Notes: generated by a model not told the origin, from the sequence alone. A DNA stretch of 64,000 bases from a virus (IMGVR_UViG_3300028610_000968); one strand, 5' to 3'. Counted from the stretch's first letter, positions 11,682 through 39,542 are shown. A program made the numbers and translations.

Positions 11682-11873
11682 ATGATAACGATAATAGTTG
11701 CTTTACTACTGATAATACTTGTCGTAGTGGTAGTGTCGGGCGTGGAAAGACAAATGAGTAAACCGCACACTGGACACCCGTGTACGCACGAAGTGACAGA
11801 AACCTTGTCAGACAACAGGGGAGAGTTCTGCATAAAGTGTGGAAAGGTATTGGACGATGCATCAATTAGATGA
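11682..11873 (+). CDS. small membrane/Zn-ribbon protein (63 aa)
   Basis: N-terminal TM helix, then C..C....C..C. Confidence 0.4.
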   Translation: MITIIVALLLIILVVVVVSGVERQMSKPHTGHPCTHEVTETLSDNRGEFCIKCGKVLDDASIR

Positions 11874-12117: not shown

Positions 12118-12292
12118 TATCACTAAGCATAGGAGGAAAAAGTCATGCTAAGTGTCTTTGATTTAAAATGTTAATAATTGGATACAGTTTACTAGTCTTA
12201 ATCCTCGGATTGGCTTGGGGAATTTGGTTGCCTGAGAACGTTGCTATTGTTTTGATGGGATTAGCCTTTGCTATCTTGGGTGTAGGTATTCT

Positions 12293-12631
12293 ATGTGTGA
12301 TGTTCTTTGCTTGGTGGTTACAACCGTGAGTAAAGATATAGAGTTGCCATTATTAGATAAATACATAGAAGAATTGAGAGATAGCATTCCTAGGGAGAGG
12401 GCTAGTAATATTGCTAGAGTCTTCAAGGCTATTATGTTAGAGGTGGAGCACGGCGGAGAGGATGCTATCGACAAACTTTCTAAGAATGATTGGTTCATGC
12501 CTATTGACGTTGATGCGCCGCATTTGGATAATGTAGAGACTTGGATAATGCAGAACCAACTTAATCTATATAGAACGTTATTAAATAGTTTCATCAAGTT
12601 ATGTTTAATAACTGACTTGGAGGAAAAATGA
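12293..12631 (+). CDS. hypothetical protein (112 aa)
   Basis: ORF track entry. Confidence 0.4.
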   Translation: MCDVLCLVVTTVSKDIELPLLDKYIEELRDSIPRERASNIARVFKAIMLEVEHGGEDAIDKLSKNDWFMPIDVDAPHLDNVETWIMQNQLNLYRTLLNSFIKLCLITDLEEK

Positions 12632-12710: not shown

Positions 12711-12974
12711 ATGAAGGATGGTATGCCGTCAGCAGAACTTATGGATGAGGAACTGCATGAGGAACTTTTGACACCGGAGTGTTGTGGGAACTGTAGATTT
12801 AGTAAAGAGTATACAAATGTTGCAGTGGAAGGAGGGTATTCTACATATGAAACCCTGCATTGTCGTAGGTATCCTCCGGTACAGCAAAAAGATATTGACG
12901 ACCCAATATATCCAAAGGTAGGAAAAGAAGCATGGTGCGGGGAATATAAAGCAGGACATGTGATAGAAGGATGA
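12711..12974 (+). CDS. hypothetical Cys-containing protein (87 aa)
   Basis: CCGNC...C...C motif. Confidence 0.4.
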   Translation: MKDGMPSAELMDEELHEELLTPECCGNCRFSKEYTNVAVEGGYSTYETLHCRRYPPVQQKDIDDPIYPKVGKEAWCGEYKAGHVIEG

Positions 12975-19799: not shown

Positions 19800-19915
19800 T
19801 GCCTGTACAGGGTATAATTATAAATACATAGCAAGGCGAACCTTGAAAACTAAATAGTATAAGGTGGTGAAAGTCTAGGTAAGTGCTGTATAGCGTGCCT
19901 TGCTATAATGTAAAC
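19800..19915 (+). promoter_or_regulatory. promoter cluster upstream of the 19934 gene (TATAAT-type -10 elements near 19826 and 19904; 18-mer GCCTGTACAGGGTATAAT)
   Basis: TGcTATAAT extended -10 at about 19902-19909. The 18-mer recurs at 20703-20721. Confidence 0.4.
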
Positions 19916-20691: not shown

Positions 20692-20721
20692 TTGGTATTG
20701 TGCGCCTGTATAGGGTATAAT
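20692..20721 (+). promoter_or_regulatory. sigma-A-like promoter (TTGGTA, 18-bp spacer, TATAAT) carrying the conserved 18-mer GCCTGTATAGGGTATAAT
   Basis: See the matching element at 19814-19831. Confidence 0.4.
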
Positions 20722-20770: not shown

Positions 20771-20923
20771 ATGATAGTATCTACAGGAAGGCTCGGGGAT
20801 AGACTGTGCGAACTATGCGGCTATACACACAACAAAGACGGACAGCTCAAGGAGACACAAATATCCGTTAATGCGCTTTCAGCTAAGATGAATGTGTGCA
20901 AAGATGGATGTGACAACAATTAG
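20771..20923 (+). CDS. small Zn-ribbon protein (50 aa), absent from the ORF track
   Basis: The ATG follows GGGAGGGAGGGAGAC. Motifs CELCG...CKDGC. The stop TAG is the first three nt of repeat R1. Confidence 0.45.
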   Translation: MIVSTGRLGDRLCELCGYTHNKDGQLKETQISVNALSAKMNVCKDGCDNN

Positions 20924-20970
20924 ACTTTGCTAGAACCTCTGGGAGACTAGGGGTTCCAGGGAAAGCCCAA
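20921..20970 (+). repeat. structured intergenic repeat R1 (TAGACTTTG, hairpin, GGAAAGCCCAA), a diverged copy
   Basis: Family consensus TAGACTTTG-YT-[stem]-[loop]-[stem']-TCTARGGARAGCCTAA. Here the stem is GAACC/GGTTC. Confidence 0.6.
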
Positions 20971-20992
20971 TAACTCAATGGGAGGGATACAA

Positions 20993-21319
20993 ATGGCAGA
21001 ACGTGTTGTATTGCGACTAGATAAAGCACCAAGGGAGATTCGAAACTGGAGAGCTACGGAAAGACGGTGGGAGACCTCTACTGGTGAGATCATCAATTCC
21101 ATTACGGAATATCCGTTAGAGCCTCGTGAGGTTTACCTAGGGAGCTTTGACTATCAAACACTGGTTGACCCGGATAACGAACTTGACTTCATTCGAGTAT
21201 TGAAGAACTTTAGAGCCATGTACGAACTGGATGGTGGCGAACTAATAAAGCTATTCAAGCGGAGTGGAGTTTTGTGCTGTCCGGCCCAATTCTATAGTAA
21301 GAGCAATTGCGTGTTTTGA
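20993..21319 (+). CDS. hypothetical protein (about 108 aa)
   Basis: ATG after GGGAGGGATACAA. Confidence 0.45.
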   Translation: MAERVVLRLDKAPREIRNWRATERRWETSTGEIINSITEYPLEPREVYLGSFDYQTLVDPDNELDFIRVLKNFRAMYELDGGELIKLFKRSGVLCCPAQFYSKSNCVF

Positions 21320-21368
21320 TGCTAGTACGTAGGCCGAGGACTATGTATCTGAACTGGGAAGATAGGAG

Positions 21369-21614
21369 GTGGAACAAATGTTTACAGCAGACGGAGTAAC
21401 AGAACGGTTTGGTTACAATAGTGACATTATTGAAAGCACTGATAAAGAATTTGACTATCAAACGCCCTGGTACAAGCAGCTGGGAGCTAATACAACCATT
21501 CAAGAGATGGTCATTTTCATGAAGGACAGAGCCAACCAAGAGCCTTACCCACAAGACGAGTTAGTAGGTGACTTGGAACTAATAGAAGTGCTCACTCGTG
21601 AAGTCCTCAAGTGA
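21369..21614 (+). CDS. hypothetical protein (81 aa)
   Basis: RBS GGAGGTGGAACAAATG. Confidence 0.45.
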   Translation: MEQMFTADGVTERFGYNSDIIESTDKEFDYQTPWYKQLGANTTIQEMVIFMKDRANQEPYPQDELVGDLELIEVLTREVLK

Positions 21615-21620
21615 CGGAGA

Positions 21621-21668
21621 CAGACTTTGTTAGAGTATCCTATAGACGGGTATTCTAAGGAAAGCCTG
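21621..21668 (+). repeat. structured intergenic repeat R2
   Basis: CAGACTTTGTTAGAGTATCC...GGTATTCTAAGGAAAGCCTGG. Confidence 0.6.
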
Positions 21669-21867
21669 GTCAAGACAGGTAAATATATAAGAGGTGCTTG
21701 TTATAATTGTAAGAAACTTGATATTAGTGGCAGTATATGTTGTTGCTGTCCTATATGGCTATTACTCTCTATGGGTATTCTTATGTCTATAGAGTATCCT
21801 TCGAGGAATAGGAAAGAATGGTCGGGGTTTGTTATTCATTCCCCCGCCCTTGGGAGGTATTAGAAGA

Positions 21868-21984
21868 ATGAAGCAACTATGGAGTGAGCTTGGTATAGTT
21901 GGTAAGGTTGGGCTGACAATGTTCTTGGTCGGTGCTTCCTTAAATATTATATTAAAGCTCTCTTACGTTATTGAAGGGAGGTGA
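21868..21984 (+). CDS. small hydrophobic peptide (38 aa)
   Basis: RBS GGGAGGTATTAGAAGAATG. Product MKQLWSELGIVGKVGLTMFLVGASLNIILKLSYVIEGR. Confidence 0.35.
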   Translation: MKQLWSELGIVGKVGLTMFLVGASLNIILKLSYVIEGR

Positions 21985-21989
21985 ACAGA

Positions 21990-22220
21990 ATGTCATTACA
22001 ATTAAAGCATCCAGGTGACAAAGCAGGTTATCCAGCTACAGCTAGGACATATATCTCAGACAATGGTTACAGACGTATTGAGGTACATAGTGGTTTTGGT
22101 TCTGGCAGCATCACTGTCACTGGTGACGAGACTCCCTGGTGCTATATGTTTGACAACCAAGGCCAGTATCAAGAGCTAGTAGCTTATATCGACGGCTTGT
22201 GTAACTGGTCTGAGGTATGA
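21990..22220 (+). CDS. hypothetical protein (76 aa)
   Basis: RBS GGGAGGTGAACAGAATG. Confidence 0.5.
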   Translation: MSLQLKHPGDKAGYPATARTYISDNGYRRIEVHSGFGSGSITVTGDETPWCYMFDNQGQYQELVAYIDGLCNWSEV

Positions 22221-22250
22221 ACATTATCTTATTGAAAGGAGGTGACAAAC

Positions 22251-22724
22251 ATGAAATGTGAAACTTGCAAAAAGTTTAAGATATGTGTGACCAGAGGAAC
22301 AGTTACAGCCGATACTAATGCCCCAAATAAATGTTACGAAGCTTTTTACAATGGCTACGAGCTTTCAGACAGAACGGAGAAGGGTGACGCTTACAAGTTG
22401 ATGACTCCCTTTGACGATGACGACAAGCTAGAGTCTGCTATTTGTGTGATTGAGTCTTCCATGATGTTATTACACACACTTAACATGACTTGCTCTGAAC
22501 TTGAGGCTGGTAGTTTGAATGGTAGCCTCGGGATGGTTATTGTTAACATTCAACGAGCCTTGGAAGTTCTTAGCTTGGCTGCGGGAGATTTGAAGGGTTG
22601 TGTTGATGACCCTAACTTCTGGACAAGTGAAAAGCTCAGTCCTATTGGTAGAGAGATGATGGGCTTGGGTGACAACGAGGCTATACAAGCTGAAATTGAA
22701 CGGTTACAAGGGATGTTGAAGTAG
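22251..22724 (+). CDS. hypothetical protein (157 aa) with N-terminal CxxC
   Basis: RBS AGGAGGTGACAAACATG. The stop TAG is embedded in R3. Confidence 0.5.
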   Translation: MKCETCKKFKICVTRGTVTADTNAPNKCYEAFYNGYELSDRTEKGDAYKLMTPFDDDDKLESAICVIESSMMLLHTLNMTCSELEAGSLNGSLGMVIVNIQRALEVLSLAAGDLKGCVDDPNFWTSEKLSPIGREMMGLGDNEAIQAEIERLQGMLK

Positions 22725-22800
22725 ACTTTGCTTGAACGCTCAGGCTATTGCCGGTAGTATAGCACGAAAGCAGGCTTGAGCGTTCTAGGGAAAGCCTAAC
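22722..22800 (+). repeat. structured intergenic repeat R3
   Basis: TAGACTTTGCTTGAACGCTCAGGC...GCTTGAGCGTTCTAGGGAAAGCCTAA. The stem sequence differs from the other copies but remains complementary. Confidence 0.65.
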
Positions 22801-22821
22801 AGTTGAAAGGTGGTGAATGAA

Positions 22822-23529
22822 ATGGATATAGAAGTACAAGATAAAGTAAAGAAGATACTTGCTTTATCGTATGGCACTGACTTTGTTGGTGAAGCTGAAG
22901 CAGCATTACTCAAAGCACAAACCATGCTGAAAGGGATAGGGCTGACAGTTGAGGAATTCGAGCGTCACACTGAAACTGAACAGTCCTTAGCGGCTCTTGA
23001 CGAGATATATGACACTACATCGGGAAAACGTAGTAACTTATATCTCTCCTTGATGGCTGTCATATCTAGTAACTTCAGGTGCATGGAATACTCGATAAGA
23101 AATAAGCATACCAAAGAGGTTCAAGCACGTTTGATAGGTAACAAGGAAGATATTGAGCTTTGTTTGATGGTTTACAAGGCTGCGGTCAAGTCAATGGAGC
23201 ATTTAGCCGACCGCTACTTACACAACCTAAGAGTTAATAGTTCCCCATTGTTGTCAAACTCTCCATCTAAACTGAAGAAGTCCTTTATGTGGGGATTCTC
23301 AAGCGGTTTGAACCAAAAGTTCGAGGAACAGAAAGCTGCTAACTCTTGGGAATTGGTGCTGGCTACTCCGAAAAATGTGACCGACAAAGCAATTGAGCTT
23401 AGACTAGTTTCTGCTCAGAAGTCACAGGCTAGGTTAAGCGGAGAGGCACATGAAAGCGGCTCTGAGGCTGGTAGGGACTGGAGCCATGCTGATGCTAACA
23501 ATGCTAGGGGCAAAGCCTTAGAAAGCTAG
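22822..23529 (+). CDS. DUF2786-family protein (about 235 aa)
   Basis: The N-terminus DKVKKILALSYGTDFVGEAEAALLKAQTML matches the DUF2786 signature (KIxKLLALAxxxxNxxEAxxAxxKAQxLM). Confidence 0.55.
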   Translation: MDIEVQDKVKKILALSYGTDFVGEAEAALLKAQTMLKGIGLTVEEFERHTETEQSLAALDEIYDTTSGKRSNLYLSLMAVISSNFRCMEYSIRNKHTKEVQARLIGNKEDIELCLMVYKAAVKSMEHLADRYLHNLRVNSSPLLSNSPSKLKKSFMWGFSSGLNQKFEEQKAANSWELVLATPKNVTDKAIELRLVSAQKSQARLSGEAHESGSEAGRDWSHADANNARGKALES

Positions 23530-23545
23530 ATGGGAGGTATTGAAA

Positions 23546-23671
23546 ATGCCGGATGAAGAAAACCAGTGTACGTGTGGTGGGTTTATCCATCCCATAACTG
23601 GGAAATGTAAAGAATGTGGTTCAATTGGGCCTTGGTTTCCAACAGATGAACCAGGTATTTTAGAGAGTTAG
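23546..23671 (+). CDS. small Zn-ribbon protein (41 aa), absent from the ORF track
   Basis: MPDEENQCTCGGFIHPITGKCKECGSIG... with RBS GGGAGGTATTGAAAATG. Its stop TAG is embedded in R4. Confidence 0.4.
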   Translation: MPDEENQCTCGGFIHPITGKCKECGSIGPWFPTDEPGILES

Positions 23672-23733
23672 ACTTTGCTTGAGCGCCCAGGTGAATTTCG
23701 CCGGACAGTCTGGGCGCTCTAGGGAAAGCCTAT
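23669..23733 (+). repeat. structured intergenic repeat R4
   Basis: TAGACTTTGCTTGAGCGCCCAGG-loop-CTGGGCGCTCTAGGGAAAGCCTAT, a perfect 10-bp stem. Confidence 0.65.
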
Positions 23734-23752
23734 ACACGATGGGAGGTGAGGA

Positions 23753-24019
23753 ATGAAAATTAGATTTGCTGTTGGTAGGAGGGCAATGCAAGATATTGTT
23801 ATGCGACGAGATGTTGCATTGCGGGCGGGAGACAGTGTTGAATCGGCAGTAGAAAATGTTGCCCATGTTGCTCTACATTTCAACGTAGACGAGATGGTAG
23901 AACGATGTAAGAAAGGTAACGTTGACATCAATGATGGCTTTATAATAATTGAAGCAGAGTTGAGGCAACACCACACAGTAGGAGGTGAAGAGAACAATGC
24001 GCTTGGAAGAAAAGAATGA
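23753..24019 (+). CDS. hypothetical protein (88 aa)
   Basis: RBS GGGAGGTGAGGAATG. Confidence 0.45.
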   Translation: MKIRFAVGRRAMQDIVMRRDVALRAGDSVESAVENVAHVALHFNVDEMVERCKKGNVDINDGFIIIEAELRQHHTVGGEENNALGRKE

Positions 24020-24059
24020 TATTTATGACCACGAAGCACAAGAGAAGGAGCCTAAGTCT

Positions 24060-24161
24060 ATGTCCCTTATAGTCCTAGGTTTCGGTGGGTTTGCTTGGTT
24101 CTACCTGTTACTCTGGGTAGGACTCAACGCGGAACTTATAAAAGATACATTGCACATTTAG
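24060..24161 (+). CDS. small membrane peptide (33 aa), absent from the ORF track
   Basis: MSLIVLGFGGFAWFYLLLWVGLNAELIKDTLHI with RBS AGAAGGAG. Its stop TAG is embedded in R5. Confidence 0.35.
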   Translation: MSLIVLGFGGFAWFYLLLWVGLNAELIKDTLHI

Positions 24162-24222
24162 ACTTTGTTAGAGTAGATAGGGTTTGATTCGGAGGACTCT
24201 ATCTGCTCTAAGGAAAGCCTAA
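24159..24222 (+). repeat. structured intergenic repeat R5
   Basis: TAGACTTTGTTAGAGTAGATAGG...CTATCTGCTCTAAGGAAAGCCTAA. Confidence 0.65.
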
Positions 24223-24241
24223 TATAATGGAGGTGAACAAG

Positions 24242-24544
24242 ATGGCATTGGTATGTATGTACTGTGGGACTCCGGTAGCGGATAACCTAAAAGCAGGTCT
24301 TGATATATGTCCTTGTAGAGCAAGGGTACTGGAGAATCTAGAGAAAGCTACTTCTGGGCTAACCAGTGAAAATAAAGTAATACTCTTAAATAGAAGATAT
24401 GAGGACTCTAGTTTCCAGTTGTTTTTGTCTGAGTTACTGACCGTATTCCGAAGGGCTCTTGTCGCTGAAGCTCTGGAATGTCCACCCGAAACCGACGCTC
24501 AACGAAAAGCTTGGTTATCGTGGAGAGATGTAACAAGGCTATGA
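24242..24544 (+). CDS. hypothetical Zn-ribbon protein (about 100 aa)
   Basis: RBS GGAGGTGAACAAGATG. N-terminal CMYCG...CPC. Confidence 0.45.
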   Translation: MALVCMYCGTPVADNLKAGLDICPCRARVLENLEKATSGLTSENKVILLNRRYEDSSFQLFLSELLTVFRRALVAEALECPPETDAQRKAWLSWRDVTRL

Positions 24545-24574
24545 ATAAACTTCACTTGGAAGGTGGTGATAAAG

Positions 24575-24907
24575 ATGCAAGAACATGAAACAAACATAGT
24601 ACATAATATTGCACCAAGGATTCTCTTTGAGAAAGATTGGCGCACACACATGTACGAACTCGACGCGAGAATGAACAAAAGCAACAGTTCTCCATCGCGA
24701 GTTTTACTGGACATCGCTCTCAAAGGGCTTGGCGACGAGATAGTTGTCCTTTGCTATCTGCCTGAGACTGGTACTAAAGGTGAGAGGTATGCCACATGGG
24801 TTTGTAGGAACGACGGCAAACTCATCACTACTAGCGGTAATTACTTCAGACATGACGACAGAAAAGGAGCTGAAGAGAACTTCGTTACGAGGCAAGACCG
24901 TAGATAA
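24575..24907 (+). CDS. hypothetical protein (about 110 aa)
   Basis: RBS GGAAGGTGGTGATAAAGATG. Confidence 0.45.
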   Translation: MQEHETNIVHNIAPRILFEKDWRTHMYELDARMNKSNSSPSRVLLDIALKGLGDEIVVLCYLPETGTKGERYATWVCRNDGKLITTSGNYFRHDDRKGAEENFVTRQDRR

Positions 24908-24979
24908 CAGACTTTGTTAGAGTGTCTAGTGACAGCGACGATGGGCTATCGGTCACTAGGCGCTCTAAGGAAAGCCTAT
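24908..24979 (+). repeat. structured intergenic repeat R6
   Basis: CAGACTTTGTTAGAGTGTCTAGTGAC...GTCACTAGGCGCTCTAAGGAAAGCCTAT. Confidence 0.65.
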
Positions 24980-24997
24980 AAATAAGGGAGGGGTACA

Positions 24998-25192
24998 GTG
25001 GAAGATGATGAACTAGCAAGTACAGAGCATAAGTGTGTGTGGTATGTGAGTTCGGCAGATGTAGTAACATCAACAGAAGATGTTACCGTCACTATCGCGT
25101 GTCATAGATGTGATGAGACAAAAACAGTTGCTTTCGATACTGACCTTATGGTAAATATGGCACTAATCTTTGATAGAAAAGGATTAAACTAA
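24998..25192 (+). CDS. hypothetical acidic protein (64 aa)
   Basis: GTG start after AGGGAGGGG. Confidence 0.4.
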   Translation: MEDDELASTEHKCVWYVSSADVVTSTEDVTVTIACHRCDETKTVAFDTDLMVNMALIFDRKGLN

Positions 25193-25449
25193 TGAGTAGA
25201 AGAAGACATGGATTAGGTGTGCGCGTACCAACATCTAAAGATATTCTGCACACTGCTAAGATAAGAAAAGAGAGCCAAACATTCAGCACTATTATGAGAT
25301 ATAAAGTGTTGGGAGAAGAAGACCAAAGCTCTGCAATAAGAAGGGCTTTTGTGGATGGCTACAATGAGCATAGAAAAGCTCTTAGTTTCTTGACTAATGC
25401 CGAGTTGGATTACTTAGAGAAATGGGAACACACAATAAGGACAAGTTGA
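25192..25449 (+). CDS. hypothetical basic protein (85 aa)
   Basis: ATGA overlap with the upstream gene. Confidence 0.45.
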   Translation: MSRRRHGLGVRVPTSKDILHTAKIRKESQTFSTIMRYKVLGEEDQSSAIRRAFVDGYNEHRKALSFLTNAELDYLEKWEHTIRTS

Positions 25450-25465
25450 GAGGGAGGTGAACAAG

Positions 25466-25747
25466 ATGTTTCCACCCAAAGAGTTCATAAGAGAAGATGG
25501 GGGCATGGACGTACTGGGATTTGCTGAACATATTGTACAAAAAACAGCAGATATCTGTGCAGAAATGCCTCTGGAACTTGAGAAGTATGAAGCCGAGGCA
25601 GCATTGGTGATGATTACTTGTCTCAAAGAATTGGAGATAACTCTAAGGATTATTGGCCATCAAGGTATGGCTAAGTCTGTCCACACAACATATGTGGAGT
25701 TTGAACTCCTAGTCATGCAGAGGATACCAAAAGAAATGGTAAACTAA
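25466..25747 (+). CDS. hypothetical protein (about 93 aa)
   Basis: RBS GGGAGGTGAACAAGATG. Confidence 0.45.
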   Translation: MFPPKEFIREDGGMDVLGFAEHIVQKTADICAEMPLELEKYEAEAALVMITCLKELEITLRIIGHQGMAKSVHTTYVEFELLVMQRIPKEMVN

Positions 25748-25765
25748 TGGAAAGAGGTGAGCAGA

Positions 25766-25948
25766 ATGGCATTTGAATCACAACTCAAAAAATATCAAGT
25801 ACTAGTCTATTATGGTAGCTCAATAGATAATGAAGAAGTGGAGGCTGAGAACGAACAAAAAGCCCTACACTTAGCTTACGTTGAGCTTGACTACACAGAT
25901 TACTTCAAGCAAAATGTAATCGAAAAGGTCGAGATAACTTTAATTTAA
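25766..25948 (+). CDS. hypothetical protein (about 60 aa)
   Basis: RBS AGAGGTGAGCAGAATG. Confidence 0.4.
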   Translation: MAFESQLKKYQVLVYYGSSIDNEEVEAENEQKALHLAYVELDYTDYFKQNVIEKVEITLI

Positions 25949-25949
25949 T

Positions 25950-26062
25950 TAGACTTTGTTAGAGCGCCTAGTGGAGAGGATGTCAACTAGGGATTACTTA
26001 GGTGTGGGAGAGTAGGGTTTGAATCCCTGCGGTATCCACCAGGCGTTCTAAGGAGAGCCTAA
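25950..26062 (+). repeat. structured intergenic repeat R7 (extended, about 113 nt)
   Basis: It shares the first 26 nt with R8 (TAGACTTTGTTAGAGCGCCTAGTGG). The extended loop contains AGGGTTTGAATCCCT, a T-arm-like mini-hairpin. Confidence 0.6.
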
Positions 26063-26080
26063 TACAAGGAGGTGAACAGA

Positions 26081-26404
26081 ATGATGGATTTTATAAAGTT
26101 AGACCAAGAAGAGGTACGTGCTCTTTTTAGGACAAGTGAAAACCAATCAGATATTGTACTAGCTTTGTACAAGATGGTATACCCTGATTGGGATGACATT
26201 AAATCTATTGAGGGTTATCCAACGATAAACCCAAAGACCAATGAAGAGATTTTCGGTATGTTTCGCATATTTGATAGGAACCATTGTCCCGACCAATCAA
26301 TCCTACGAGGTGCGTTGTGGTTCAATAAAGGGTTCTCTACTCTCAAGGGCAGTGATGTCCCAGAGTGGACAGTTGACCCAACCACAGCTCAAGTGAACTA
26401 TTAG
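26081..26404 (+). CDS. hypothetical protein (about 107 aa)
   Basis: RBS AGGAGGTGAACAGAATG. The stop TAG is embedded in R8. Confidence 0.45.
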   Translation: MMDFIKLDQEEVRALFRTSENQSDIVLALYKMVYPDWDDIKSIEGYPTINPKTNEEIFGMFRIFDRNHCPDQSILRGALWFNKGFSTLKGSDVPEWTVDPTTAQVNY

Positions 26405-26475
26405 ACTTTGTTAGAGCGCCTAGTGGTGTAGAGTTCCCCTCTCATTTACGCTAGGCGTTCTAAGGAAAGCCTAAG
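26402..26475 (+). repeat. structured intergenic repeat R8
   Basis: TAGACTTTGTTAGAGCGCCTAGTGG...CGCTAGGCGTTCTAAGGAAAGCCTAA. Confidence 0.65.
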
Positions 26476-26492
26476 ATGTGGAGGCACGACAA

Positions 26493-26792
26493 ATGGGATA
26501 TTATGTTGACCCAGAAACTGAAGAAAAAGAGGACTTTTTGGAGCGTGAAGGCCAAAAGGTAGACTCTGGTGATATACCTTGGGATGAAGTTCCTAATGGT
26601 ATGTTTCCAGTGATACTGGTAGAAAATCCAACATTCACAGCAGCTGTTATCTGTACTACAGATAAAGAGTTTCAGTACTTTTTACGCACTCCCGGAGACC
26701 CAAGACCAAAGACTCTATACCTTGTGGGCAAACGGGAGTTGTTAGCAGCATCAAATCAACTGTTTTTGAGAGACTTTGCAACATCACAGTGA
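26493..26792 (+). CDS. hypothetical protein (about 99 aa)
   Basis: ATG after GTGGAGGCACGACAA. Confidence 0.45.
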   Translation: MGYYVDPETEEKEDFLEREGQKVDSGDIPWDEVPNGMFPVILVENPTFTAAVICTTDKEFQYFLRTPGDPRPKTLYLVGKRELLAASNQLFLRDFATSQ

Positions 26793-26807
26793 AGGAGGTG
26801 AAATAAC

Positions 26808-27026
26808 GTGGCTAATTCATTAGATGCTGACCTCATGGGCAAGCACGTGATAGTACATGGGAGAACGGTTCTCGCAGTAAATGGTTTCGGGTCTTTTAGT
26901 TTTACTGTGGGTCGAGGACTATTCATCGAAGATGCGGATGGAGCCAACCATAGCATTTCTGGCTTTGATGTTGAACGATTTGCAAACGCTGGAGAAGTTG
27001 CTAATTTTAAGGAGATGCAAACATGA
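26808..27026 (+). CDS. hypothetical protein (72 aa)
   Basis: GTG start after GAAGGAGGTGAAATAAC. Confidence 0.4.
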   Translation: MANSLDADLMGKHVIVHGRTVLAVNGFGSFSFTVGRGLFIEDADGANHSISGFDVERFANAGEVANFKEMQT

Positions 27027-27205
27027 GCTACGAACAAATTATGGGGAGAGGGAAAAGGAGACCAGTGGAGAAGCTGTATTGTCCGTCTGGGCATCCAGTA
27101 CGTCTCAGAACACATGAGGACAGCACAGTGAAACCTGGATACTTTGCTGAGTGTTTGATATGCGAAGAAGACTATTACTTGTCTCAGTTGACAGCGGGTA
27201 AATAA
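27023..27205 (+). CDS. Zn-ribbon protein (60 aa)
   Basis: CPSGH...CLICEEDY. Confidence 0.4.
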   Translation: MSYEQIMGRGKRRPVEKLYCPSGHPVRLRTHEDSTVKPGYFAECLICEEDYYLSQLTAGK

Positions 27206-27239
27206 GTGTTTGAATATAAGATTGAGGAGGTGATTGAGA

Positions 27240-27422
27240 GTGAGCATGAAAATGGGCAGTTGGTGGGTAAGAAGCATAAAAGATAAAAGATGGGATGGTA
27301 CTGGCAAAGACATTGTTGGAGGTTTTGGAATACCACCGAAAGCTCAAGCTCACGTTGACAAGATCGAAAAGGAGCTTGGAGAAAAACCAGATGATCTTGA
27401 GTTCGGGTACATGAAAGATTAG
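27240..27422 (+). CDS. hypothetical protein (about 60 aa)
   Basis: GTG after GAGGAGGTGATTGAGA. The stop TAG is embedded in R9. Confidence 0.35.
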   Translation: MSMKMGSWWVRSIKDKRWDGTGKDIVGGFGIPPKAQAHVDKIEKELGEKPDDLEFGYMKD

Positions 27423-27490
27423 ACTTTGTTAGAGCCGGTAATGCCCCATCGCAAAGTTGTGGTACTTACCGGCTCTAAGGAGAGCCTAAT
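27420..27490 (+). repeat. structured intergenic repeat R9
   Basis: TAGACTTTGTTAGAGCCGGTAA-loop-TTACCGGCTCTAAGGAGAGCCTAA, a perfect 12-bp stem. Confidence 0.65.
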
Positions 27491-27698: not shown

Positions 27699-27721
27699 AG
27701 TGCTCTTGGCGGCTTTCCGCT

Positions 27722-27778
27722 TGCTTGGTTAAGTGCCTGGTCACGGGGGTTGCTTGCGTTTTACGGTTATGCTATAAT
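27722..27778 (+). promoter_or_regulatory. sigma-A-like promoter P3 (TTGCTT, 17-bp spacer, TGcTATAAT) with a variant of the conserved upstream element (GCTTGGTTAAGTGCCTGGTCACGG)
   Basis: Extended -10 and a -35-like hexamer. The upstream element is similar to P1 and P2. Confidence 0.45.
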
Positions 27779-28006
27779 AAGGGAGCTAAGAAATTAACAG
27801 AATAGTATATAATTTGAGGAGAGAGGCTCTGCGAAGAGCGGCTAGACTAAACACGAGGATTAACGCAGTATGCCACTGCGCCCTCCCTGTGTGGAAGCTA
27901 GACGTTCTACGGAGAGTATTATAATGGTAGTAATCGTAGTCTTTGTACTTATAATGATAGCAGCAGCAGTAAATATCACATTCACTCTCGCCTCAGGTGA
28001 TGCTGA

Positions 28007-28360
28007 GTGAGAATTTTAGTATGCGGTAGCAGATGGTGGACTAGTAGAAGCGCCATTATGCGAGAATTAAGCAAGTTCGATATGAAAACCACCACGATAA
28101 TTGAAGGTGAAGCTCAAGGCGCTGATTTGATTGCTAGAGATGTTGGCAGCAAGTTAGGTTTCGACATAGAGCCTTATCCTGCCAATTGGACTAGGTATCG
28201 CCTGGGAGCTGGCCCAGTTAGAAACTCCAAGATGTTAACACAGGGCTATCCAGATTTAGTGTTAGCTTTTCACGAGAACATTGAGAAGAGCAAAGGCACT
28301 AAGGACATGATAGCCAAAGCCGAGAAAGCTGGAGTTGAAGTGAGGTTGTTTAGTGATTAA
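28007..28360 (+). CDS. SLOG-superfamily (DprA/LOG-like, DUF2493-type) Rossmann-fold protein
   Basis: MRILVCGSR...IIEGEAQGADLIARDVG... matches the small phage SLOG-domain proteins (GSR, G-x-G-x-D). Confidence 0.45.
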   Translation: MRILVCGSRWWTSRSAIMRELSKFDMKTTTIIEGEAQGADLIARDVGSKLGFDIEPYPANWTRYRLGAGPVRNSKMLTQGYPDLVLAFHENIEKSKGTKDMIAKAEKAGVEVRLFSD

Positions 28361-30820: not shown

Positions 30821-31087
30821 ATGGCGAAAAGAGGCCCACAACCGGGTACTCCACAAGCAAAGCGGGGAGGGGAGACAGTCAAGGAAAAGTACGGCCCTGA
30901 GTTCTATAAAAAGATAGGCAAAAAGGGTGGCGATGCTGTCAAAAAGAAGTATGGTGCTAGTTTCTACGAAGAGATTGGTAAAAAAGGCGGTGAATCTACC
31001 AAAGCAAAGCATGGCCTCGAATTCTATGAGAGAATAGGCAAAAAAGGAGGCCGCAGGAGCACAGAGGAAGGAGATGAAAAAACTTGA
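30821..31087 (+). CDS. GsiB/YciG-like KGG-repeat stress protein (hydrophilin), copy/segment 1
   Basis: Three tandem 20-aa repeats KYGPEFYKKIGKKGG, KYGASFYEEIGKKGG and KHGLEFYERIGKKGG, as in Bacillus GsiB (HDKEFYQEIGQKGGEAT). Confidence 0.6.
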   Translation: MAKRGPQPGTPQAKRGGETVKEKYGPEFYKKIGKKGGDAVKKKYGASFYEEIGKKGGESTKAKHGLEFYERIGKKGGRRSTEEGDEKT

Positions 31088-31107
31088 GTGACAGTGAAAA
31101 AGGTAAA

Positions 31108-31344
31108 ATGACGGTTGGTGCTGCTGGAAGTAAAGGTGGCAAAAGCACCATGAAGAAGTACGGCCCAGGATTCTATGAAGAGATAGGCAAAAAGGGCGGT
31201 ACTGAAACATCTCGAAAGTATGGGCGAGAGTTCTATCAGGAGATTGGCCACAGGGGAGGCCAGAAAGTGAAGAAGCTCATTGAGGCAGGCAAAAAAGCCG
31301 AAGCGGAGGCGGCAGGCAAGGGAACCGAAGAAGAAGAACTATAA
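31108..31344 (+). CDS. GsiB/YciG-like KGG-repeat protein, copy/segment 2
   Basis: Repeats KYGPGFYEEIGKKGG and KYGREFYQEIGHRGG. It is in a different frame from 30821-31087, and the two frames meet at an A6 run (31077-31082). This could be one frameshifted gene or two tandem genes. Confidence 0.5.
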   Translation: MTVGAAGSKGGKSTMKKYGPGFYEEIGKKGGTETSRKYGREFYQEIGHRGGQKVKKLIEAGKKAEAEAAGKGTEEEEL

Positions 31345-31390: not shown

Positions 31391-31474
31391 GGGCGAGTGG
31401 TGGAACTGGTATACACAACGGACTTAAAATCCGTCGCCTTAACCGGATTGGGGGTTCGAATCCCCCCTTGCCTA
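31391..31474 (+). tRNA. tRNA-Leu(TAA): tRNA-Leu (anticodon TAA), type II with a long variable arm
   Basis: Hand-folded. Acceptor GGGCGAG/CTTGCCT has two G-U pairs. Anticodon stem ACGGA/TCCGT with loop CTTAAAA. Variable arm of 16 nt. T-arm GGGGG-TTCGAAT-CCCCC. Confidence 0.6.
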
Positions 31475-31843
31475 CTGTCTCTGCAAACTGAAGAGCTGAC
31501 GAGCCTGAGAGAGAACTGCGGCTGTTCACCGTGACTCACTAGGGTTGCAGAGACTATGACATTATATTATATTGGAGGTGATAACTTATGCTATTTAACA
31601 GTACTAGTGTACTCTGGGTGTGTGAAGCAAGGACAACAGCAGAACCAAAACCGCACGTTCATCTTGATCGACTGAAGTATGCGGCAGAGTTTGCCCCGTA
31701 GCCGTGGCTGGCAACATGGAGATTAACATTATACCGTTAGATTAACAAAACAACTTACAGGAAATGATTTAAAGGTTTAACGGAGTGCCTGGACTGGTGA
31801 CCGGGTGCTCCCTCAAATCTTTAATGGAAGAGAGGTGATATTT

Positions 31844-32350
31844 ATGATTCAACATGGTATGAAAGTAAGGGACAATTTATCTGGATTTGAAGGAACAGTC
31901 ACAGCTATAAGTGATTGGGCTTTTGGCTGCATCCGCATCAAAGTAGAGCCAAACAGACTTGACGAAAAGGGTGCTCCAATTCAAAATCAAGTCTTTGATG
32001 AACAACGATTGGACATTATTGATGATAAGGGAGCGATTGTACCCGACATTGATGCAGACCCACCAATTGAGATGGGGTGGGAGGTAAAAGATTCCATAAC
32101 TGGGTTCAAAGGAATCGTTGTGTGCAGGACTACACATATCTCAGGTCTAGTCATAGTCCAAGTGGCAGCTGAGAAGATGAAAGAAGGCAAGCCAGTTGAG
32201 GAACAAGCCTTTGAAGAAAGGCGCTTAGTGAAAATCGAGGCCAAGAAAGTCAAGCACAGTAAAGATGCTATCAACAGGGAGAAGGATGCCCCGCAAGGCG
32301 ACCAGGTGGCAGCGGGGAGTAGCGTTCTCAATACGGGGAGTACCGTATAA
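31844..32350 (+). CDS. hypothetical protein with two tandem small beta-domain repeats (about 168 aa)
   Basis: ATG after AGAGAGGTGATATTT. The internal duplication is G-x-K-V-x-D-x-x-S/T-G-F-x-G-x-V at residues about 5-35 and about 80-110. Confidence 0.45.
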   Translation: MIQHGMKVRDNLSGFEGTVTAISDWAFGCIRIKVEPNRLDEKGAPIQNQVFDEQRLDIIDDKGAIVPDIDADPPIEMGWEVKDSITGFKGIVVCRTTHISGLVIVQVAAEKMKEGKPVEEQAFEERRLVKIEAKKVKHSKDAINREKDAPQGDQVAAGSSVLNTGSTV

Positions 32351-32421
32351 AGTTTTAAGGGCTATTGGCTCAACGGACAGAGCGCCGGGTTACGAACCCG
32401 GAGACTACAGGTTCAAATCCT
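32349..32421 (+). tRNA. tRNA-Arg(ACG): tRNA-Arg (anticodon ACG)
   Basis: Clean cloverleaf. Acceptor GGGCTAT/ATAGTCC, D-stem GCTC/GAGC, anticodon stem CCGGG/CCCGG with loop TTACGAA, T-arm ACAGG-TTCAAAT-CCTGT. Confidence 0.75.
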
Positions 32422-32437
32422 GTATAGTCCTCTATGA

Positions 32438-32506
32438 TATACTCTTGGTGTAGTGGATTGCACGGTTATCTCTGGTATGGAGATGATAAGTCTGGGTTCG
32501 ACTCCC
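32438..32506 (+). other. tRNA-like element with a canonical T-arm (CTGGG-TTCGACT-CCCGG) and a 5-bp stem ATCTC/GAGAT, but no resolvable acceptor stem; possible tRNA remnant or structured RNA
   Basis: GGTTCGACTCCC is a textbook T-arm. I could not pair the 5' and 3' ends into a 7-bp acceptor stem, and the candidate anticodon loop TGGTATG lacks U33. Confidence 0.25.
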
Positions 32507-32601
32507 GGAGGGTAAACTATGGATAGAGATAGAATAACATATAAGAAATTTAAACATGAGATGCGTTCTTTTTGGATATTTCTTTCGGTTCTTTTTAGTT
32601 C

Positions 32602-32886
32602 ATGGATTATTATGTGTGCTGTTGGTATGCACTTTGGACTCATCGGGAGGTTGTATTAACTATGGCAAATATTGATGATTTAATAAAAGCTATTGAAAAA
32701 GAATTATCAAGATATGATAGTTTTACTTTTGGCATTGAACGTAATATTCATGGTCGCTGGGCGGCGGAAGCTGATTATTACAATATCAAACAGATAAGAA
32801 CTGGTGAATGGTGTCATAAAGAAACAGAGTGGGTTGGCAGTTATGAAAAAGCTCTATCTAACCTACTTAAAGCTATAAGTAGATAA
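32602..32886 (+). CDS. hypothetical protein (94 aa)
   Basis: ORF track entry. Confidence 0.4.
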   Translation: MDYYVCCWYALWTHREVVLTMANIDDLIKAIEKELSRYDSFTFGIERNIHGRWAAEADYYNIKQIRTGEWCHKETEWVGSYEKALSNLLKAISR

Positions 32887-33062
32887 TTAAGGGAAGTGTA
32901 TAATGAGTGAGCTCGAAGACTTTTTAGTTGGTAAATCAGATGATAAAAAACCTTATAAATTATGTGATTGGCAGTGTGCTGTGCAATGGATTATTATCCT
33001 AGCAGTAATTGGCTACATTGTTGTGAGTTTTGTTATAAATAATCCTTAAAAAGAGGTGAAGT

Positions 33063-33326
33063 ATGTCAGAATATAGATTTATCTCAGACCCAGGACACGG
33101 GTGGCTCGCAGTACCATATCACGAGCTGCTCATGTTGAATATAGTTAATAAAATCTCAGAACATAGCCACAGAGATGGAAACGACATTTATCTTGAAGAA
33201 GATGTAGATGCCTTATGCTTTGTGGATGCTTGGGAACAAGCAAATAAGAAAAAGATTAAACTAATTGAGGTAACTCTATTACAAGAAGCAGATATAAGAA
33301 AAATGAATTCCTTCAAACTGATTTAA
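33063..33326 (+). CDS. hypothetical protein (87 aa)
   Basis: RBS AAAGAGGTGAAGTATG. Confidence 0.45.
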   Translation: MSEYRFISDPGHGWLAVPYHELLMLNIVNKISEHSHRDGNDIYLEEDVDALCFVDAWEQANKKKIKLIEVTLLQEADIRKMNSFKLI

Positions 33327-33335
33327 CAAAGGGGT

Positions 33336-33695
33336 ATGATGAGTAGTATTCATGACAAACTAACAGCAGCAAATATCACAGATAAAGTGCACCTGGGGAC
33401 AGCAAAAATATTAGATTGTATTCGTTGTCTAAAAGGAGAGGAACTCAACTGCGGCGTACCACCTGGAGATTGTGGTGATAATTTACCAGCAGCTCTGTGG
33501 GAAGCTATAAAAAAAGAAACTCAAGACCCCACTATAAACATTAAATGTACTTGTGCCGAGCCAATGATAGAACTTCACAGTGAAGTATCATTTAAGGGCA
33601 AACAGAGAATAACTTTGTCTATTTTTCAATGTGACTCTTGTGGAGATACGAATGAAGTAACGATTATAAGAGAGGAGGAAACGAATGGCGAATGA
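33336..33695 (+). CDS. hypothetical Cys-rich protein (119 aa)
   Basis: CIRC...C, C.C and CDSCG. Confidence 0.45.
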   Translation: MMSSIHDKLTAANITDKVHLGTAKILDCIRCLKGEELNCGVPPGDCGDNLPAALWEAIKKETQDPTINIKCTCAEPMIELHSEVSFKGKQRITLSIFQCDSCGDTNEVTIIREEETNGE

Positions 33696-33960
33696 TGATG
33701 ACGAATCAACTAATAATAGGGTAACTTTTTTGGTGTGGGTAGCAACGGGAGTAGCAATAATTGCTTGTTTTATCGCTTCTCTTGCTGTAGGAAGAACTGC
33801 CGTAATGCAAGGACAAATAGATGCTCTACACAAAGCTGCGCTTGACAACATAGGTAAAGACATCGAACATGTCCAAAGTGATGTAGACATACTAAAGATA
33901 ATAAAGCACTATCATCCGACAACAGGTAAACCAAAACAACCGGCGAAAATCGTACAATAG
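33685..33960 (+). CDS. membrane-anchored protein (91 aa)
   Basis: N-terminal TM helix. RBS GAGGAGGAAACGAATG. Confidence 0.45.
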   Translation: MANDDDESTNNRVTFLVWVATGVAIIACFIASLAVGRTAVMQGQIDALHKAALDNIGKDIEHVQSDVDILKIIKHYHPTTGKPKQPAKIVQ

Positions 33961-34060
33961 AGGAGTGAGGAAGTATGAGGTCTAAAATGGACGCAAAGAA
34001 GATCAAGCCCTGCCGCGTTTGGTTAAATTTTATATTGGATAAACTAACGTCGAGATTTAA

Positions 34061-34252
34061 ATGAAGTCTAAAATGGAGGAAAAGCGTAAAGGTGGTAAAA
34101 TAATATCAGGAGCACTGCTCATGAGTTCTGGTGCAGGTTATACTGCATGTATCTTTATGCTGGGGGTAAGTCCCGCATGGGCTTTTGTAGATGTTATATT
34201 TGCGACAATGGCGTTGTTGGGAGGGATTGCACTATCGCCTAACGTTGACTAA
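34061..34252 (+). CDS. small membrane protein (63 aa)
   Basis: Two TM helices. Confidence 0.35.
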   Translation: MKSKMEEKRKGGKIISGALLMSSGAGYTACIFMLGVSPAWAFVDVIFATMALLGGIALSPNVD

Positions 34253-34258
34253 ATATCG

Positions 34259-34331
34259 GGGTAGGTAACTCAGAGGCCAGAGTAGTGGACTTTTAATCCA
34301 TTCGCCGAGGGTTCGACTCCCTCTCTACCCA
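34259..34331 (+). tRNA. tRNA-Lys(TTT): tRNA-Lys (anticodon TTT)
   Basis: Acceptor GGGTAGG/TCTACCC, D-stem ACTC/GAGT, anticodon stem GTGGA/TCCAT with loop CTTTTAA, T-arm GAGGG-TTCGACT-CCCTC. Confidence 0.75.
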
Positions 34332-34333
34332 CT

Positions 34334-34570
34334 ATGCAAGAAAAAAATATATGTATAGATATAAAATGTGAACACTGTAAGGGAGAAGGCAGAGTTCTCG
34401 TTGACGACGAATGGGATAAATATTGGGAACACTTTGGAGAATTACCACCACCAAGTAATCAGTTATACAAAGGTGGTAGAGTGTGGGAAGAATGTGTAAT
34501 CTGTAGAGGAGAGCGCACAGTGGAAATAAAAGTTGGTATAAAATATGAGATAAGAATAAAGGAGGACTAA
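34334..34570 (+). CDS. DnaJ-type CxxCxGxG zinc-finger protein (78 aa)
   Basis: CEHCKGEGRV and CVICRGERTV. Confidence 0.5.
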   Translation: MQEKNICIDIKCEHCKGEGRVLVDDEWDKYWEHFGELPPPSNQLYKGGRVWEECVICRGERTVEIKVGIKYEIRIKED

Positions 34571-34573
34571 ACA

Positions 34574-34774
34574 ATGGCAGGTAATAAAAAAACAAAAGTC
34601 TACTACTTAAATGGAGACCCAGGTGCAGATTTTAGGGCTGTTAGAGATGATGAAGGCTGTCTAGCAATATTTCTGGATACTGGTGATTCTCTGATAGCAA
34701 GTAATCCATTTTCAAGGAATGAAGCCCTTGGTTTAATTGACTTTTTACAAAATCATCTACCGGAACCAGATTAG
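34574..34774 (+). CDS. hypothetical protein (66 aa)
   Basis: RBS AAGGAGGACTAAACAATG. Confidence 0.4.
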   Translation: MAGNKKTKVYYLNGDPGADFRAVRDDEGCLAIFLDTGDSLIASNPFSRNEALGLIDFLQNHLPEPD

Positions 34775-35047
34775 ATGGGAGCAGCTTGGGTGATATTAAA
34801 TATACTTGATGGTGGTCTAACATACTGGGCTATCACAAGTGGACAGGCTGTGGAGGGTAATCCTGTCTTGAATAGAGCCTGGCAATATGGATGGTTGCCG
34901 TTCTTTGCACTCAAGTTCACATCAGCCGCTATTGTACTTGGTGTGTATCGCTCATACAGAGCACACAGGAAGATAAGATATGCTATGGTTTTTGGTAATA
35001 TATTAATTGGAGCTGTAGTGGTGTATGAGATATTAAACTTAATATGA
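34775..35047 (+). CDS. membrane protein (90 aa)
   Basis: Three TM helices. Confidence 0.4.
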   Translation: MGAAWVILNILDGGLTYWAITSGQAVEGNPVLNRAWQYGWLPFFALKFTSAAIVLGVYRSYRAHRKIRYAMVFGNILIGAVVVYEILNLI

Positions 35048-35059
35048 GAGGAGAAAACA

Positions 35060-35233
35060 ATGACTTTAAGAGATGCTTTGTTTTTACTGTCTGGAACTAA
35101 CTACGGCGTGTCATTAGTTTTAGGAGTATCTGCGCTGAGGTTTGGTTCAGATGGCGTTGATGTGTACATAATTTTATTTAACGTTTTCTTTGGAACACTA
35201 AATCTTCTTGGTGCTTTGGGGAGAACAAGATAA
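35060..35233 (+). CDS. small membrane protein (57 aa), absent from the ORF track
   Basis: RBS GAGAGGAGAAAACAATG. It is the first of a run of tiny hydrophobic ORFs spanning 35.06-36.13 kb. Confidence 0.35.
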   Translation: MTLRDALFLLSGTNYGVSLVLGVSALRFGSDGVDVYIILFNVFFGTLNLLGALGRTR

Positions 35234-35488
35234 CGCTATGGAGTTTTGGTTATTGACAAGTGCAGTTGTGATTCTTATGATATTTATTTTAATCGCAGCG
35301 TGCCTATATATTAGGGAGGTGTAACATGTTTAAGAAAATAGTTCTTACCATAATATTATTACTTGCACTTGAGATGGCTCTTACTGGCGTGATAATTCTT
35401 AGTGCAACAGGTAATCCTTTGGCATTTATAGTGTGCTTTGGGATTGCACTACTTATGACTTATGGAGTAATTACTGCTATATAAAAAT

Positions 35489-35564
35489 AAGGGGAGTTAG
35501 CTCAACTTGGTATAGAGCCGCAGACTCATAATCTGTTGGTTGGGGGTTCGAGTCCCTCACTCCC
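35489..35564 (+). tRNA. tRNA-Met(CAT): tRNA-Met (anticodon CAT; initiator, elongator or Ile-lysidine type not resolved)
   Basis: Acceptor GGGGAGT/ACTCCCC, D-stem GCTC/GAGC, anticodon stem GCAGA/TCTGT with loop CTCATAA, T-arm GGGGG-TTCGAGT-CCCTC. Confidence 0.7.
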
Positions 35565-35940
35565 CACTGTGGTAATAGAGCGACAGGAGGAAACATGAAA
35601 GATTGGGTTAGAGGAATAGGATTTGGCTTTTCCGCTGCTTCACTGATTATAGGAACATTGTTGGAACCAATAATCGTGGGCATAGGTTTTATATTGTTAG
35701 TTATGACACTTGGATTCCTGTATGTTGGAGAGGTAATCGAAAAGCTAATCGAAACCCAAGAATAAAATGGAGGTAAACAATGAAAGTAACTTTAAATGAC
35801 ATTCAAGAGAATTTAGATGAGTTCCATTCAGCCGAAATGTTGGATGCAGAAGAATTTGAAGACCAAATAGAAAACATAAGTAAAGAGGTAAAAGGTGAAA
35901 GAGGCTCGGCTGAATTCGTCACCAGCCTCAAAAACGCTTT

Positions 35941-37783: not shown

Positions 37784-37940
37784 AGTCTCGCAGAGAAATA
37801 ACTAATGGTAAGAAAATAAAACCTCCAATGAGTGAAGGAGAGTATACTAGATTATACCAATTAGATAAGAACGGTAAAAAACGTGGAGTTATATTTCAAC
37901 TCAATATGAGAACTAGATCACGCAAAGGAGGTACTTCATA

Positions 37941-39480: not shown

Positions 39481-39542
39481 GCTTGGTTTTGCAAAGTCGC
39501 AGGTCAAGGCTATTGACAAGCGTTTTAAGACTATGGTATTAT
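39481..39542 (+). promoter_or_regulatory. sigma-A-like promoter P2 (TTGACA 39513-39518, 18-bp spacer, TGgTATTAT) with the conserved upstream element GCTTGGTTTTGCAAAGTCGCAGGTCAAGG
   Basis: Near-identical architecture to P1. It drives the 39601-47136 gene block. Confidence 0.55.

Follow-up and report, generated by a model that had tools for sequence, protein, structure and literature searches.

Nine related hairpins, R1 to R9, punctuate a run of small genes in a 64,000-nt stretch of DNA (the window) from the virus IMGVR_UViG_3300028610_000968. We propose that these repeats are probably RNase III processing hairpins of the SPO1/SP82 type, which divide a polycistronic early mRNA. This assignment was made because the layout of the lower stem and its sequence core match those of the SPO1 and SP82 sites. 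The nine copies span positions 20921-27488, and all of them lie on the + strand and between + strand open reading frames (ORFs). Two of them, R1 and R2, fall upstream of the interval (22722-27490) quoted in an earlier note on this DNA. The window comes from a metagenomic contig of 129,023 bp (European Nucleotide Archive ERZ27251120 k141_3673617), with window position 1 at record position 37879, and an identical sequence has also been assembled from SRR5210996.

Architecture and folding of the hairpins

The nine repeats share a conserved base around the upper stem, with the consensus (U/C)AGACUUUG(Y)U(W)GA ... UC(Y)A(R)GGA(R)AGCC. At the foot of the hairpin, a helix of 3 bp (P1) pairs (U/C)AG with CU(A/G), and directly above it stands a 1x1 A x C mismatch that is invariant among R1-R9. 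A 4-bp helix (P2, CUUU with A(A/G)AG) follows, capped by a conserved internal loop in which G is placed opposite GG. The next helix, P3, opens with (U/C)U(A/U)GA(G/A) and continues into a paired upper stem of about 11-24 bp whose sequence is specific to each copy. Overall, the hairpins comprise ~18-30 bp, and their loops range from 4 to ~60 nt. The 3' flank also carries a motif of its own, with nine matches against 1.7 expected.

A covariance model built from the nine copies recovered exactly R1-R9 in the window at 52-79 bits, with the next match at 12 bits. This model gave no further full copy elsewhere in the 64 kb, and none was found by scanning ~18 kb of adjoining contig. In Rfam searches, only four tRNAs of the window reached the gathering threshold, while the hairpins yielded chance-level matches and no family.

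Folding as RNA and as single-stranded DNA (ssDNA), which the earlier note had proposed, gave distinct outcomes. The + strand RNAs were stable, with minimum free energies of -18 to -42 kcal/mol and z-scores of -2.2 to -5.4 across the nine copies, and the + strand was more stable than the - strand in every one of them. Folding as ssDNA was weak on both strands (-5 to -17 kcal/mol), with the + strand better in seven of nine.

Covariation and the selected molecule

According to the earlier note, the stems vary in primary sequence and remain complementary, and our analysis bears this out. Among the stems that it quoted, those of R4 and R9 are perfectly complementary, that of R3 contains one G·U pair and that of R6 contains two U·G pairs. 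Covariation was evaluated with a structure-anchored alignment of the nine copies, 21 hand-defined pairs and 500 shuffles. Standard pairs occupied 95.2% of the cells, and 10 of the 21 pairs had changed on both sides. The covariation score was 0.446 versus 0.210 ± 0.028 in the shuffles, none of which reached the observed value, and the covariation is thus significant rather than at chance level. Sliding the 3' partner by 1-3 columns as a control reduced pairing to 29-60%, and unguided RNAalifold returned nearly the same structure as the hand-defined model. The upper stems of R1, R2, R5 and R9 are mutually unrelated in sequence, yet each is fully paired. Overall, the hairpin structure is under selection.

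The pairs also identify the molecule on which selection acts. Among the non-Watson-Crick cells of the 21 pairs, 15 were G·U and four were A·C; the invariant A x C mismatch represents one inherited site. Together with the advantage of + strand RNA in all nine copies, the bias towards G·U over A·C establishes that sense-strand RNA is the selected molecule, which argues against a purely DNA-level palindrome.

Similarity to RNase III sites of SPO1 and SP82

RNase III sites in the early mRNA of SP82 were reportedly described by Panganiban and Whiteley (1983) and by Mitra and Bechhofer (1994), and Hue, Cohen and Bechhofer (1995) are said to have described a purine-rich 5' stabilizer downstream of an SP82 site. 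The RNase III targets of SP82 contain internal loops (PMC1935012), and RNase III cleavage sites have been reported for the SPO1 host-takeover module (PMC3896407, citing Stewart et al. 1998).

In a forward test, a covariance model derived from the nine window copies only was used to search Bacillus phage SPO1 over its first 20 kb. Four of the five best matches coincided with features annotated as 'RNAse III site RS-A/B/C/D' in GenBank AF031901, the entry of Stewart et al. 1998 for the SPO1 'host-takeover module', and all five were intercistronic hairpins on the right strand and in the right register. The same SPO1 sites are present in SP82G. For the reverse test, a model made from five SPO1 sites was run on the 64-kb window. 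Its top two matches were R2 (15.8 bits) and R1 (13.1 bits), and R4 (11.6 bits) and R5 (8.7 bits) were listed as well. By our estimate, the chance of the top two matches landing on the sites of the other family is ~1e-4 to 1e-5 per direction. A shared core of sequence and structure was therefore found by profile in both directions.

The lower stems of the window hairpins and of SPO1 follow a common plan of YAG/CUR, a 1x1 mismatch, a 4-bp helix and a G-containing internal loop. Above this conserved part, an upper stem starting with YUAG carries copy-specific, compensated sequence, both in the window and in RS-A to RS-D. The correspondence is apparent when the lower stem of RS-B (CAG-A-GGUU-G-CUAG... 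...CUAU-GG-AGCC-A-CUG) is set beside that of R2 (CAG-A-CUUU-G-UUAG... ...CUAA-GG-AAAG-C-CUG). The sequences differ in P2, which is CUUU/AAAG in the window versus GGUU/AGCC in SPO1, and in the 3' core, which is GGAAAGCC in the window versus AUGGAGCC in SPO1. Sense-strand intercistronic hairpins among small genes with sigma-A-type promoters are common to the window and SPO1/SP82, and the sigma-70-like promoter candidate ahead of the array (Table 1) fits this type, with early timing of the operon presumed. At the protein level, the window phage is unrelated to SPO1/SP82.

Two further observations concern the distribution of such sites. Directly after SPO1 gene 58, a hairpin (AF031901 10544-10592, - strand) bears the full RS-A to RS-D consensus UAGGUUGCUAG...AAUGGAGCCUA and overlaps the annotated terminator TL2.7; judged by its sequence, it looks like a putative seventh RNase III-type site that is unannotated. 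Apart from SPO1, a scan of IMG/VR with an SPO1-type motif yielded no more than single matches, which were weak and owed their selection to the pattern used, and the scan was therefore uninformative.

Position relative to stop codons, Shine-Dalgarno sites and promoters

Across the nine copies, the hairpin starts 0-6 nt past the upstream stop codon. In six of them (R1, R3, R4, R5, R8 and R9), the TAG of the repeat is itself the stop codon of the preceding ORF, and the UAG at the hairpin base likewise serves as the upstream stop at SPO1 genes 45, 57 and 58. Because TAG makes up only ~19% of the stops in the window, its use at these six junctions reflects the repeat itself. The remaining three copies follow other stops. 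In R2, CAG replaces TAG, the U to C change at the base is offset on the 3' side (CAG/CUG), and the preceding TGA stop ends 6 nt upstream. R6 also has CAG, with a TAA stop directly upstream, and R7 lies 1 nt downstream of a TAA stop with its own TAG out of frame. The earlier note was thus correct that the 5' TAG usually ends the preceding ORF. Its description of the element as partly translated goes too far: the overlap is confined to the stop codon, and none of the repeat's sense codons is translated.

On the downstream side, a GGAGG-type Shine-Dalgarno (SD) site lies 5-12 nt past the last paired base in eight of the nine copies. The exception is R2, which is followed by the promoter-like TGTTATAAT and no SD. 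Purine-rich SD sites are found downstream in SPO1 as well, at a spacing of ~20-35 nt versus 5-12 nt in the window. No consistent sequestration of the downstream SD by the hairpin was detected, whether or not the 5' arm was masked. A U-tract is absent after all nine hairpins, where the downstream 10 nt are A/G-rich and lead into the SD, and a promoter scan gave no promoter inside the repeats. Where no hairpin is present, neighboring genes overlap or are separated by very short gaps, and the hairpins delimit tightly packed groups, each with one to four small orphan genes.

The promoter-like sequences near the array include a duplicated element. Two exact copies of CCTGTAYAGGGTATAAT (19802-19818 and 20705-20721) each form the -10 region of a promoter-like site before a gene start, which suggests a phage-specific early promoter variant. 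In addition, a 39-nt motif (AAGTCGCAGGTCARGRCTATTGACA...) that contains TTGACA occurs at 270-308 and 39488-39526, as two copies of 82% identity that lie ~39 kb apart, and possibly represents a common promoter or other regulatory element.

Table 1. Coordinates of the hairpins and associated features in the window, and of the SPO1 sites matched by the window covariance model.
Feature	Position	Strand	Window model (bits)	ORF ended by the repeat's TAG	Remarks
R1 hairpin	20921-20969	+	55.5	20771-20923	Upper stem short, 10 bp; P1 weakened
R2 hairpin	21621-21668	+	52.5		Base CAG/CUG, compensated
R3 hairpin	22722-22798	+	66.8	22242-22724	
R4 hairpin	23669-23732	+	70.2	23540-23671	
R5 hairpin	24159-24221	+	67.7	23985-24161	
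R6 hairpin	24908-24978	+	68.2		CAG base
R7 hairpin	25950-26061	+	65.1		R8-like; apical insert enlarged (~60 nt)
R8 hairpin	26402-26473	+	79.1	26072-26404	
R9 hairpin	27420-27488	+	69.4	27234-27422	
Decayed tenth copy	27836-27925	+			9.1 bits; stem GAGCGGCTAG/CTAGACGTTC; 3' flank TCTACGGAGAG, R7/R8-like; 5' base lost
Rearranged partial R2 duplicate	21773-21830	+			In order: R2 3' arm GGGTATTCT, R2 5' arm TAGAGTATCCT, R2-like 3' flank
T-arm-like mini-hairpin in R7 insert	26012-26030	+			GUAGGG-UUUGAAU-CCCUGC; core GGGTTTGAATCCC at 26015-26027
Sigma-70-like promoter candidate	20692-20721	+			TTGGTA-18-TATAAT; just upstream of the array's first gene
SPO1 match, RS-B	12434-12484	-	19.6		E ~1e-4
SPO1 match, RS-D	7111-7160	+	13.7		
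SPO1 match, look-alike	12230-12275	-	8.8		Annotated as terminator
SPO1 match, RS-C	11808-11854	-	8.0		
SPO1 match, RS-A	12729-12778	-	5.3		

A proposed processing model and points that weigh against it

If the hairpins are RNase III sites, the operon would be transcribed by the host polymerase as long early RNAs, and a host RNase III of narrow specificity would read the conserved lower stem and internal loop and cut the stem once, on its 3' side. The message upstream of the cut would then keep a protective 3' hairpin that starts exactly at its stop codon, with no unprotected 3' tail. The downstream message would begin a few nucleotides before a strong SD, such that bound ribosomes could shield the new 5' end. 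In this manner, a long early transcript would be split into separately stable and separately translated units.

The RNase III sites in the early and late mRNAs of coliphage T7 (R0.3, R0.5, R1.1 and others) also form a family of related intercistronic hairpins with an internal loop, a likeness that is functional. In T7, cleavage occurs once, on the 3' side, and leaves the upstream message with a stabilizing 3' hairpin, and the same cut would be expected for the window hairpins, although host enzyme specificity and the sequences differ between the two. A single downstream cut has been described in stems that contain an internal 'bubble' (PMC1935012).

Several points weigh against this interpretation. 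Cleavage itself, the location of the cut, the enzyme and the early timing of the operon are all matters that we infer. Scores between the two families stay modest, at 5-20 bits for the window model on SPO1 and E = 0.03-3 for the SPO1 model on the window, and therefore do not tell homology from convergence, and the likeness between the window and SPO1 could reflect convergence on the requirements of one enzyme rather than common descent. The upper stems of the window hairpins are longer (11-24 bp versus ~10-13 bp in SPO1), RS-E and RS-F of SPO1 are unlike the window hairpins, and the RS annotations of SPO1 appear to us to rest on similarity to SP82. The covariation was observed among paralogues of one genome and has no cross-genome component. 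Moreover, the copies include the subfamilies R6/R7/R8 and R3/R4, some of them recent duplicates, and independent events are consequently fewer than the cell counts. Finally, a Bacillota host is suggested only by two sequence features of the window that fit this group, the GGAGG-type SDs and the TGnTATAAT extended -10 motifs.

Alternative explanations

Alternatively, the hairpins may never be cut by RNase III and may act instead as a barrier to 3'-exonucleases, as a translational insulator or as a site for a phage or host RNA-binding protein at the invariant lower stem. An invariant lower stem below a freely varying upper stem is typical of a protein-recognized hairpin, the hairpin folds as a separate domain with no consistent sequestration of the downstream SD, and RNase III cleavage at these hairpins is only what we infer. 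We nonetheless consider such a role unlikely, given that annotated RNase III sites of SPO1 and SP82G have this lower-stem core in common with the window and that precomputed Pfam hits over ~81 kb of the contig include neither an RNA-binding nor an RNase domain. For a site of the operator type, nine copies within 6.6 kb would also be a large number. Transcription terminators or attenuators that grade expression down the operon are highly implausible. Stable, GC-containing hairpins do close the gene groups, and one look-alike in SPO1 is annotated as terminator TL2.7. However, no U-tract follows any copy, the A/G-rich sequence downstream leads into the SD, and a terminator scan listed none of the nine hairpins, and intrinsic terminators were rejected on these grounds.

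Two further alternatives place the function, or the lack of one, at the level of DNA. It is quite improbable that the repeats are PeSL- or attC-like recombination or cassette boundaries that shuffle gene groups, with incidental RNA structure, although they do bound groups of one to four packed small orphan genes, R7 and R8 are near-identical direct repeats around a single gene, and rearranged and decayed copies are present. PeSLs (promoter-early stem-loops) of T4-type phages consist of a strong sigma-70 promoter and a terminator stem-loop, and shuffling via these elements has been shown (PMC2839356). Both PeSLs (PMC2839356, PMC4122927) and the window repeats are repeated intergenic stem-loops among small non-essential genes in a plastic region, and either kind can favor the exchange or duplication of modules of genes. 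In contrast to PeSLs, the window repeats possess neither the defining promoter nor a U-tract, and this class was rejected. Integron attC sites resemble the window repeats in being imperfect inverted repeats whose ends are conserved and whose center varies, and in following successive small ORFs in one orientation, but their box order and orientation (R''-L''...L'-R') are different. The GTTRRR/YYYAAC-like boxes of the window (+ strand GTTAGAG...CTCTAAG) are arranged opposite to R'' (RYYYAAC) at the 5' side and R' (GTTRRRY) at the 3' side. The precomputed Pfam hits for called genes of contig loci L121-L124 included no integrase or other recombinase, and attC, which is defined in part by an adjacent IntI integrase, was likewise rejected. 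The G·U bias and the + strand RNA advantage in all nine copies would be unexpected for a DNA site and point to RNA rather than a folded DNA strand. Furthermore, the two arms of each copy match each other and not those of other copies, and exchange within the stem is thus rare. A role as DNA-level module boundaries is possible as a side effect.

It is similarly very improbable that the family is a functionless, selfish inverted repeat resembling a miniature inverted-repeat transposable element (MITE), flanked by TA and spread within the operon. Imperfect terminal inverted repeats can be recognized (TAGaCTTTg / cGGAAAGcCTA), most copies start and end with TA, and local duplication is evident. 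However, the interiors are unrelated and unalignable in sequence yet paired, and are therefore selected rather than decaying. The copies have a single orientation and one precise position relative to the stop codon and SD, and form one 6.6-kb cluster. Their flanks show no consistent target-site duplication, and no copies were found elsewhere in the window, in 18 kb of flanking contig or in public collections, apart from one isolated match in a coding region; a MITE was rejected accordingly. We judged each of the four alternatives less likely than RNase III processing.

The SAS/ESAS elements of Cluster K mycobacteriophages (PMC3203893) bear some resemblance to the window hairpins, as both have conserved inverted repeats with a variable spacer, located just before translation starts in unusually long gaps. 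The authors of that study found little support for mRNA hairpins at ESAS, in that departures from consensus in the two inverted repeats did not suggest pairing (PMC3203893). In contrast, compensation is strong in the window hairpins, which have no 13-bp SAS-like motif beyond an ordinary SD.

Possible implications for processing in Gram-positive hosts

On the RNase III reading, the hairpins are a clear new example of a known signal and no new type of element. The SPO1/SP82-type signal would thereby reach an uncultured large phage that has no closely related proteins in common with SPO1 or SP82, which suggests that phages of Gram-positive hosts use conserved hairpins to punctuate operons more widely. 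With their invariant lower stem and freely covarying upper stems, the nine paralogous sites indicate which parts of the substrate an RNase III of narrow specificity probably reads. Overlap with the stop codon, which SPO1 shares, offers a small and testable detail on a possible interplay of translation and processing. In a phage otherwise made of orphan genes, the motif also hints at the operon structure and at a Bacillota-like host.

A more speculative extension, which we regard as rather unlikely, holds that the lower-stem module including its UAG stop is a portable Gram-positive RNase III code that couples termination to processing. Termination of a ribosome at the UAG would open P1, P2 and the internal loop, such that passage of the upstream ribosome would gate both cleavage and the release of the downstream cistron. 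This code would be common to phages without detectable protein kinship by way of ancient descent, horizontal spread or convergence. If this were true, the nine compensated variants would constitute a natural mutational scan of the determinants read by the enzyme.

Duplication, decay and the insert of R7

R7 and R8 are identical over 25 nt from the TAG, or 27 nt when two upstream bases are included, and their 3' arms are near-identical. The earlier note gave 26 nt and suggested recent duplication, which is supported by this identity and reinforced by a decayed tenth copy and a rearranged partial duplicate of R2 (Table 1). Together, these three observations indicate that the family grows by local duplication, and copies that are not maintained decay. 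The decayed copy lies just after the array in ~300 nt (27699-28006) without a convincing gene, which also hold an extended -10 motif, TGCTATAAT (27770). A hydrophobic ORF of 46 aa (27870-28010) with no SD overlaps the decayed copy.

The apical insert of R7 comprises ~60 nt, ~40 nt above that of R8; the value of 113 nt given previously for its loop corresponds to the whole R7 element (~113 nt). The T-arm-like mini-hairpin reported within this insert is real. Its core, GGGTTTGAATCCC, is one mismatch from the tRNA T-arm consensus, and within the window only true tRNAs match equally well. By eye, an acceptor-like pairing of 7 bp with ACCA after it can be traced, and the insert alone folds no better than shuffles. 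A tRNA gene in R7 was considered and rejected, as the Rfam tRNA model gave no match even at E<=10 and ARAGORN made a call only at a very lax threshold. The mini-hairpin is possibly a tRNA-derived remnant, not a tRNA gene.

The phage and its relatives

The contig is phage-like, with many small same-strand ORFs, five tRNA genes, a family A DNA polymerase, an SNF2 helicase and NrdD. The polymerase is <=35% identical to that of any deposited phage, and the nearest non-self helicase is 45-46% identical. Megablast and blastn searches with the region found no DNA relatives among 50,697 phage records, protein searches anchored on the helicase found none either, and a word search gave no homologue of the DUF2786/DUF7168 protein. 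Scans of viral, metagenome and genome collections with the repeat pattern returned nothing save one isolated match. This match, in IMGVR_UViG_3300008050_000692 (4714-4762, - strand), folds into a hairpin that has the same lower stem (TAGACTTTGTTAGAG...TCTAGGAAAGCCTA) and scores 30.3 bits with the window model. It is a single copy inside a 1700-aa ORF of an unrelated viral contig, and by our estimate ~0.1 chance matches are expected per collection; it may be a coincidence or an isolated in-gene site.

The five tRNA genes (Leu-TAA, Arg-ACG, Thr-GGT, Lys-TTT and Met-CAT) are scattered singly among small ORFs at 31391-35567, and tRNA-Thr is missed by the Rfam tRNA model at the gathering threshold. 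Just before the tRNA-Leu gene, positions 30880-31259 contain five copies of a 60-nt periodic coding repeat, which encodes a putative KYGPEFY..IGKKGG-like motif as read by eye.

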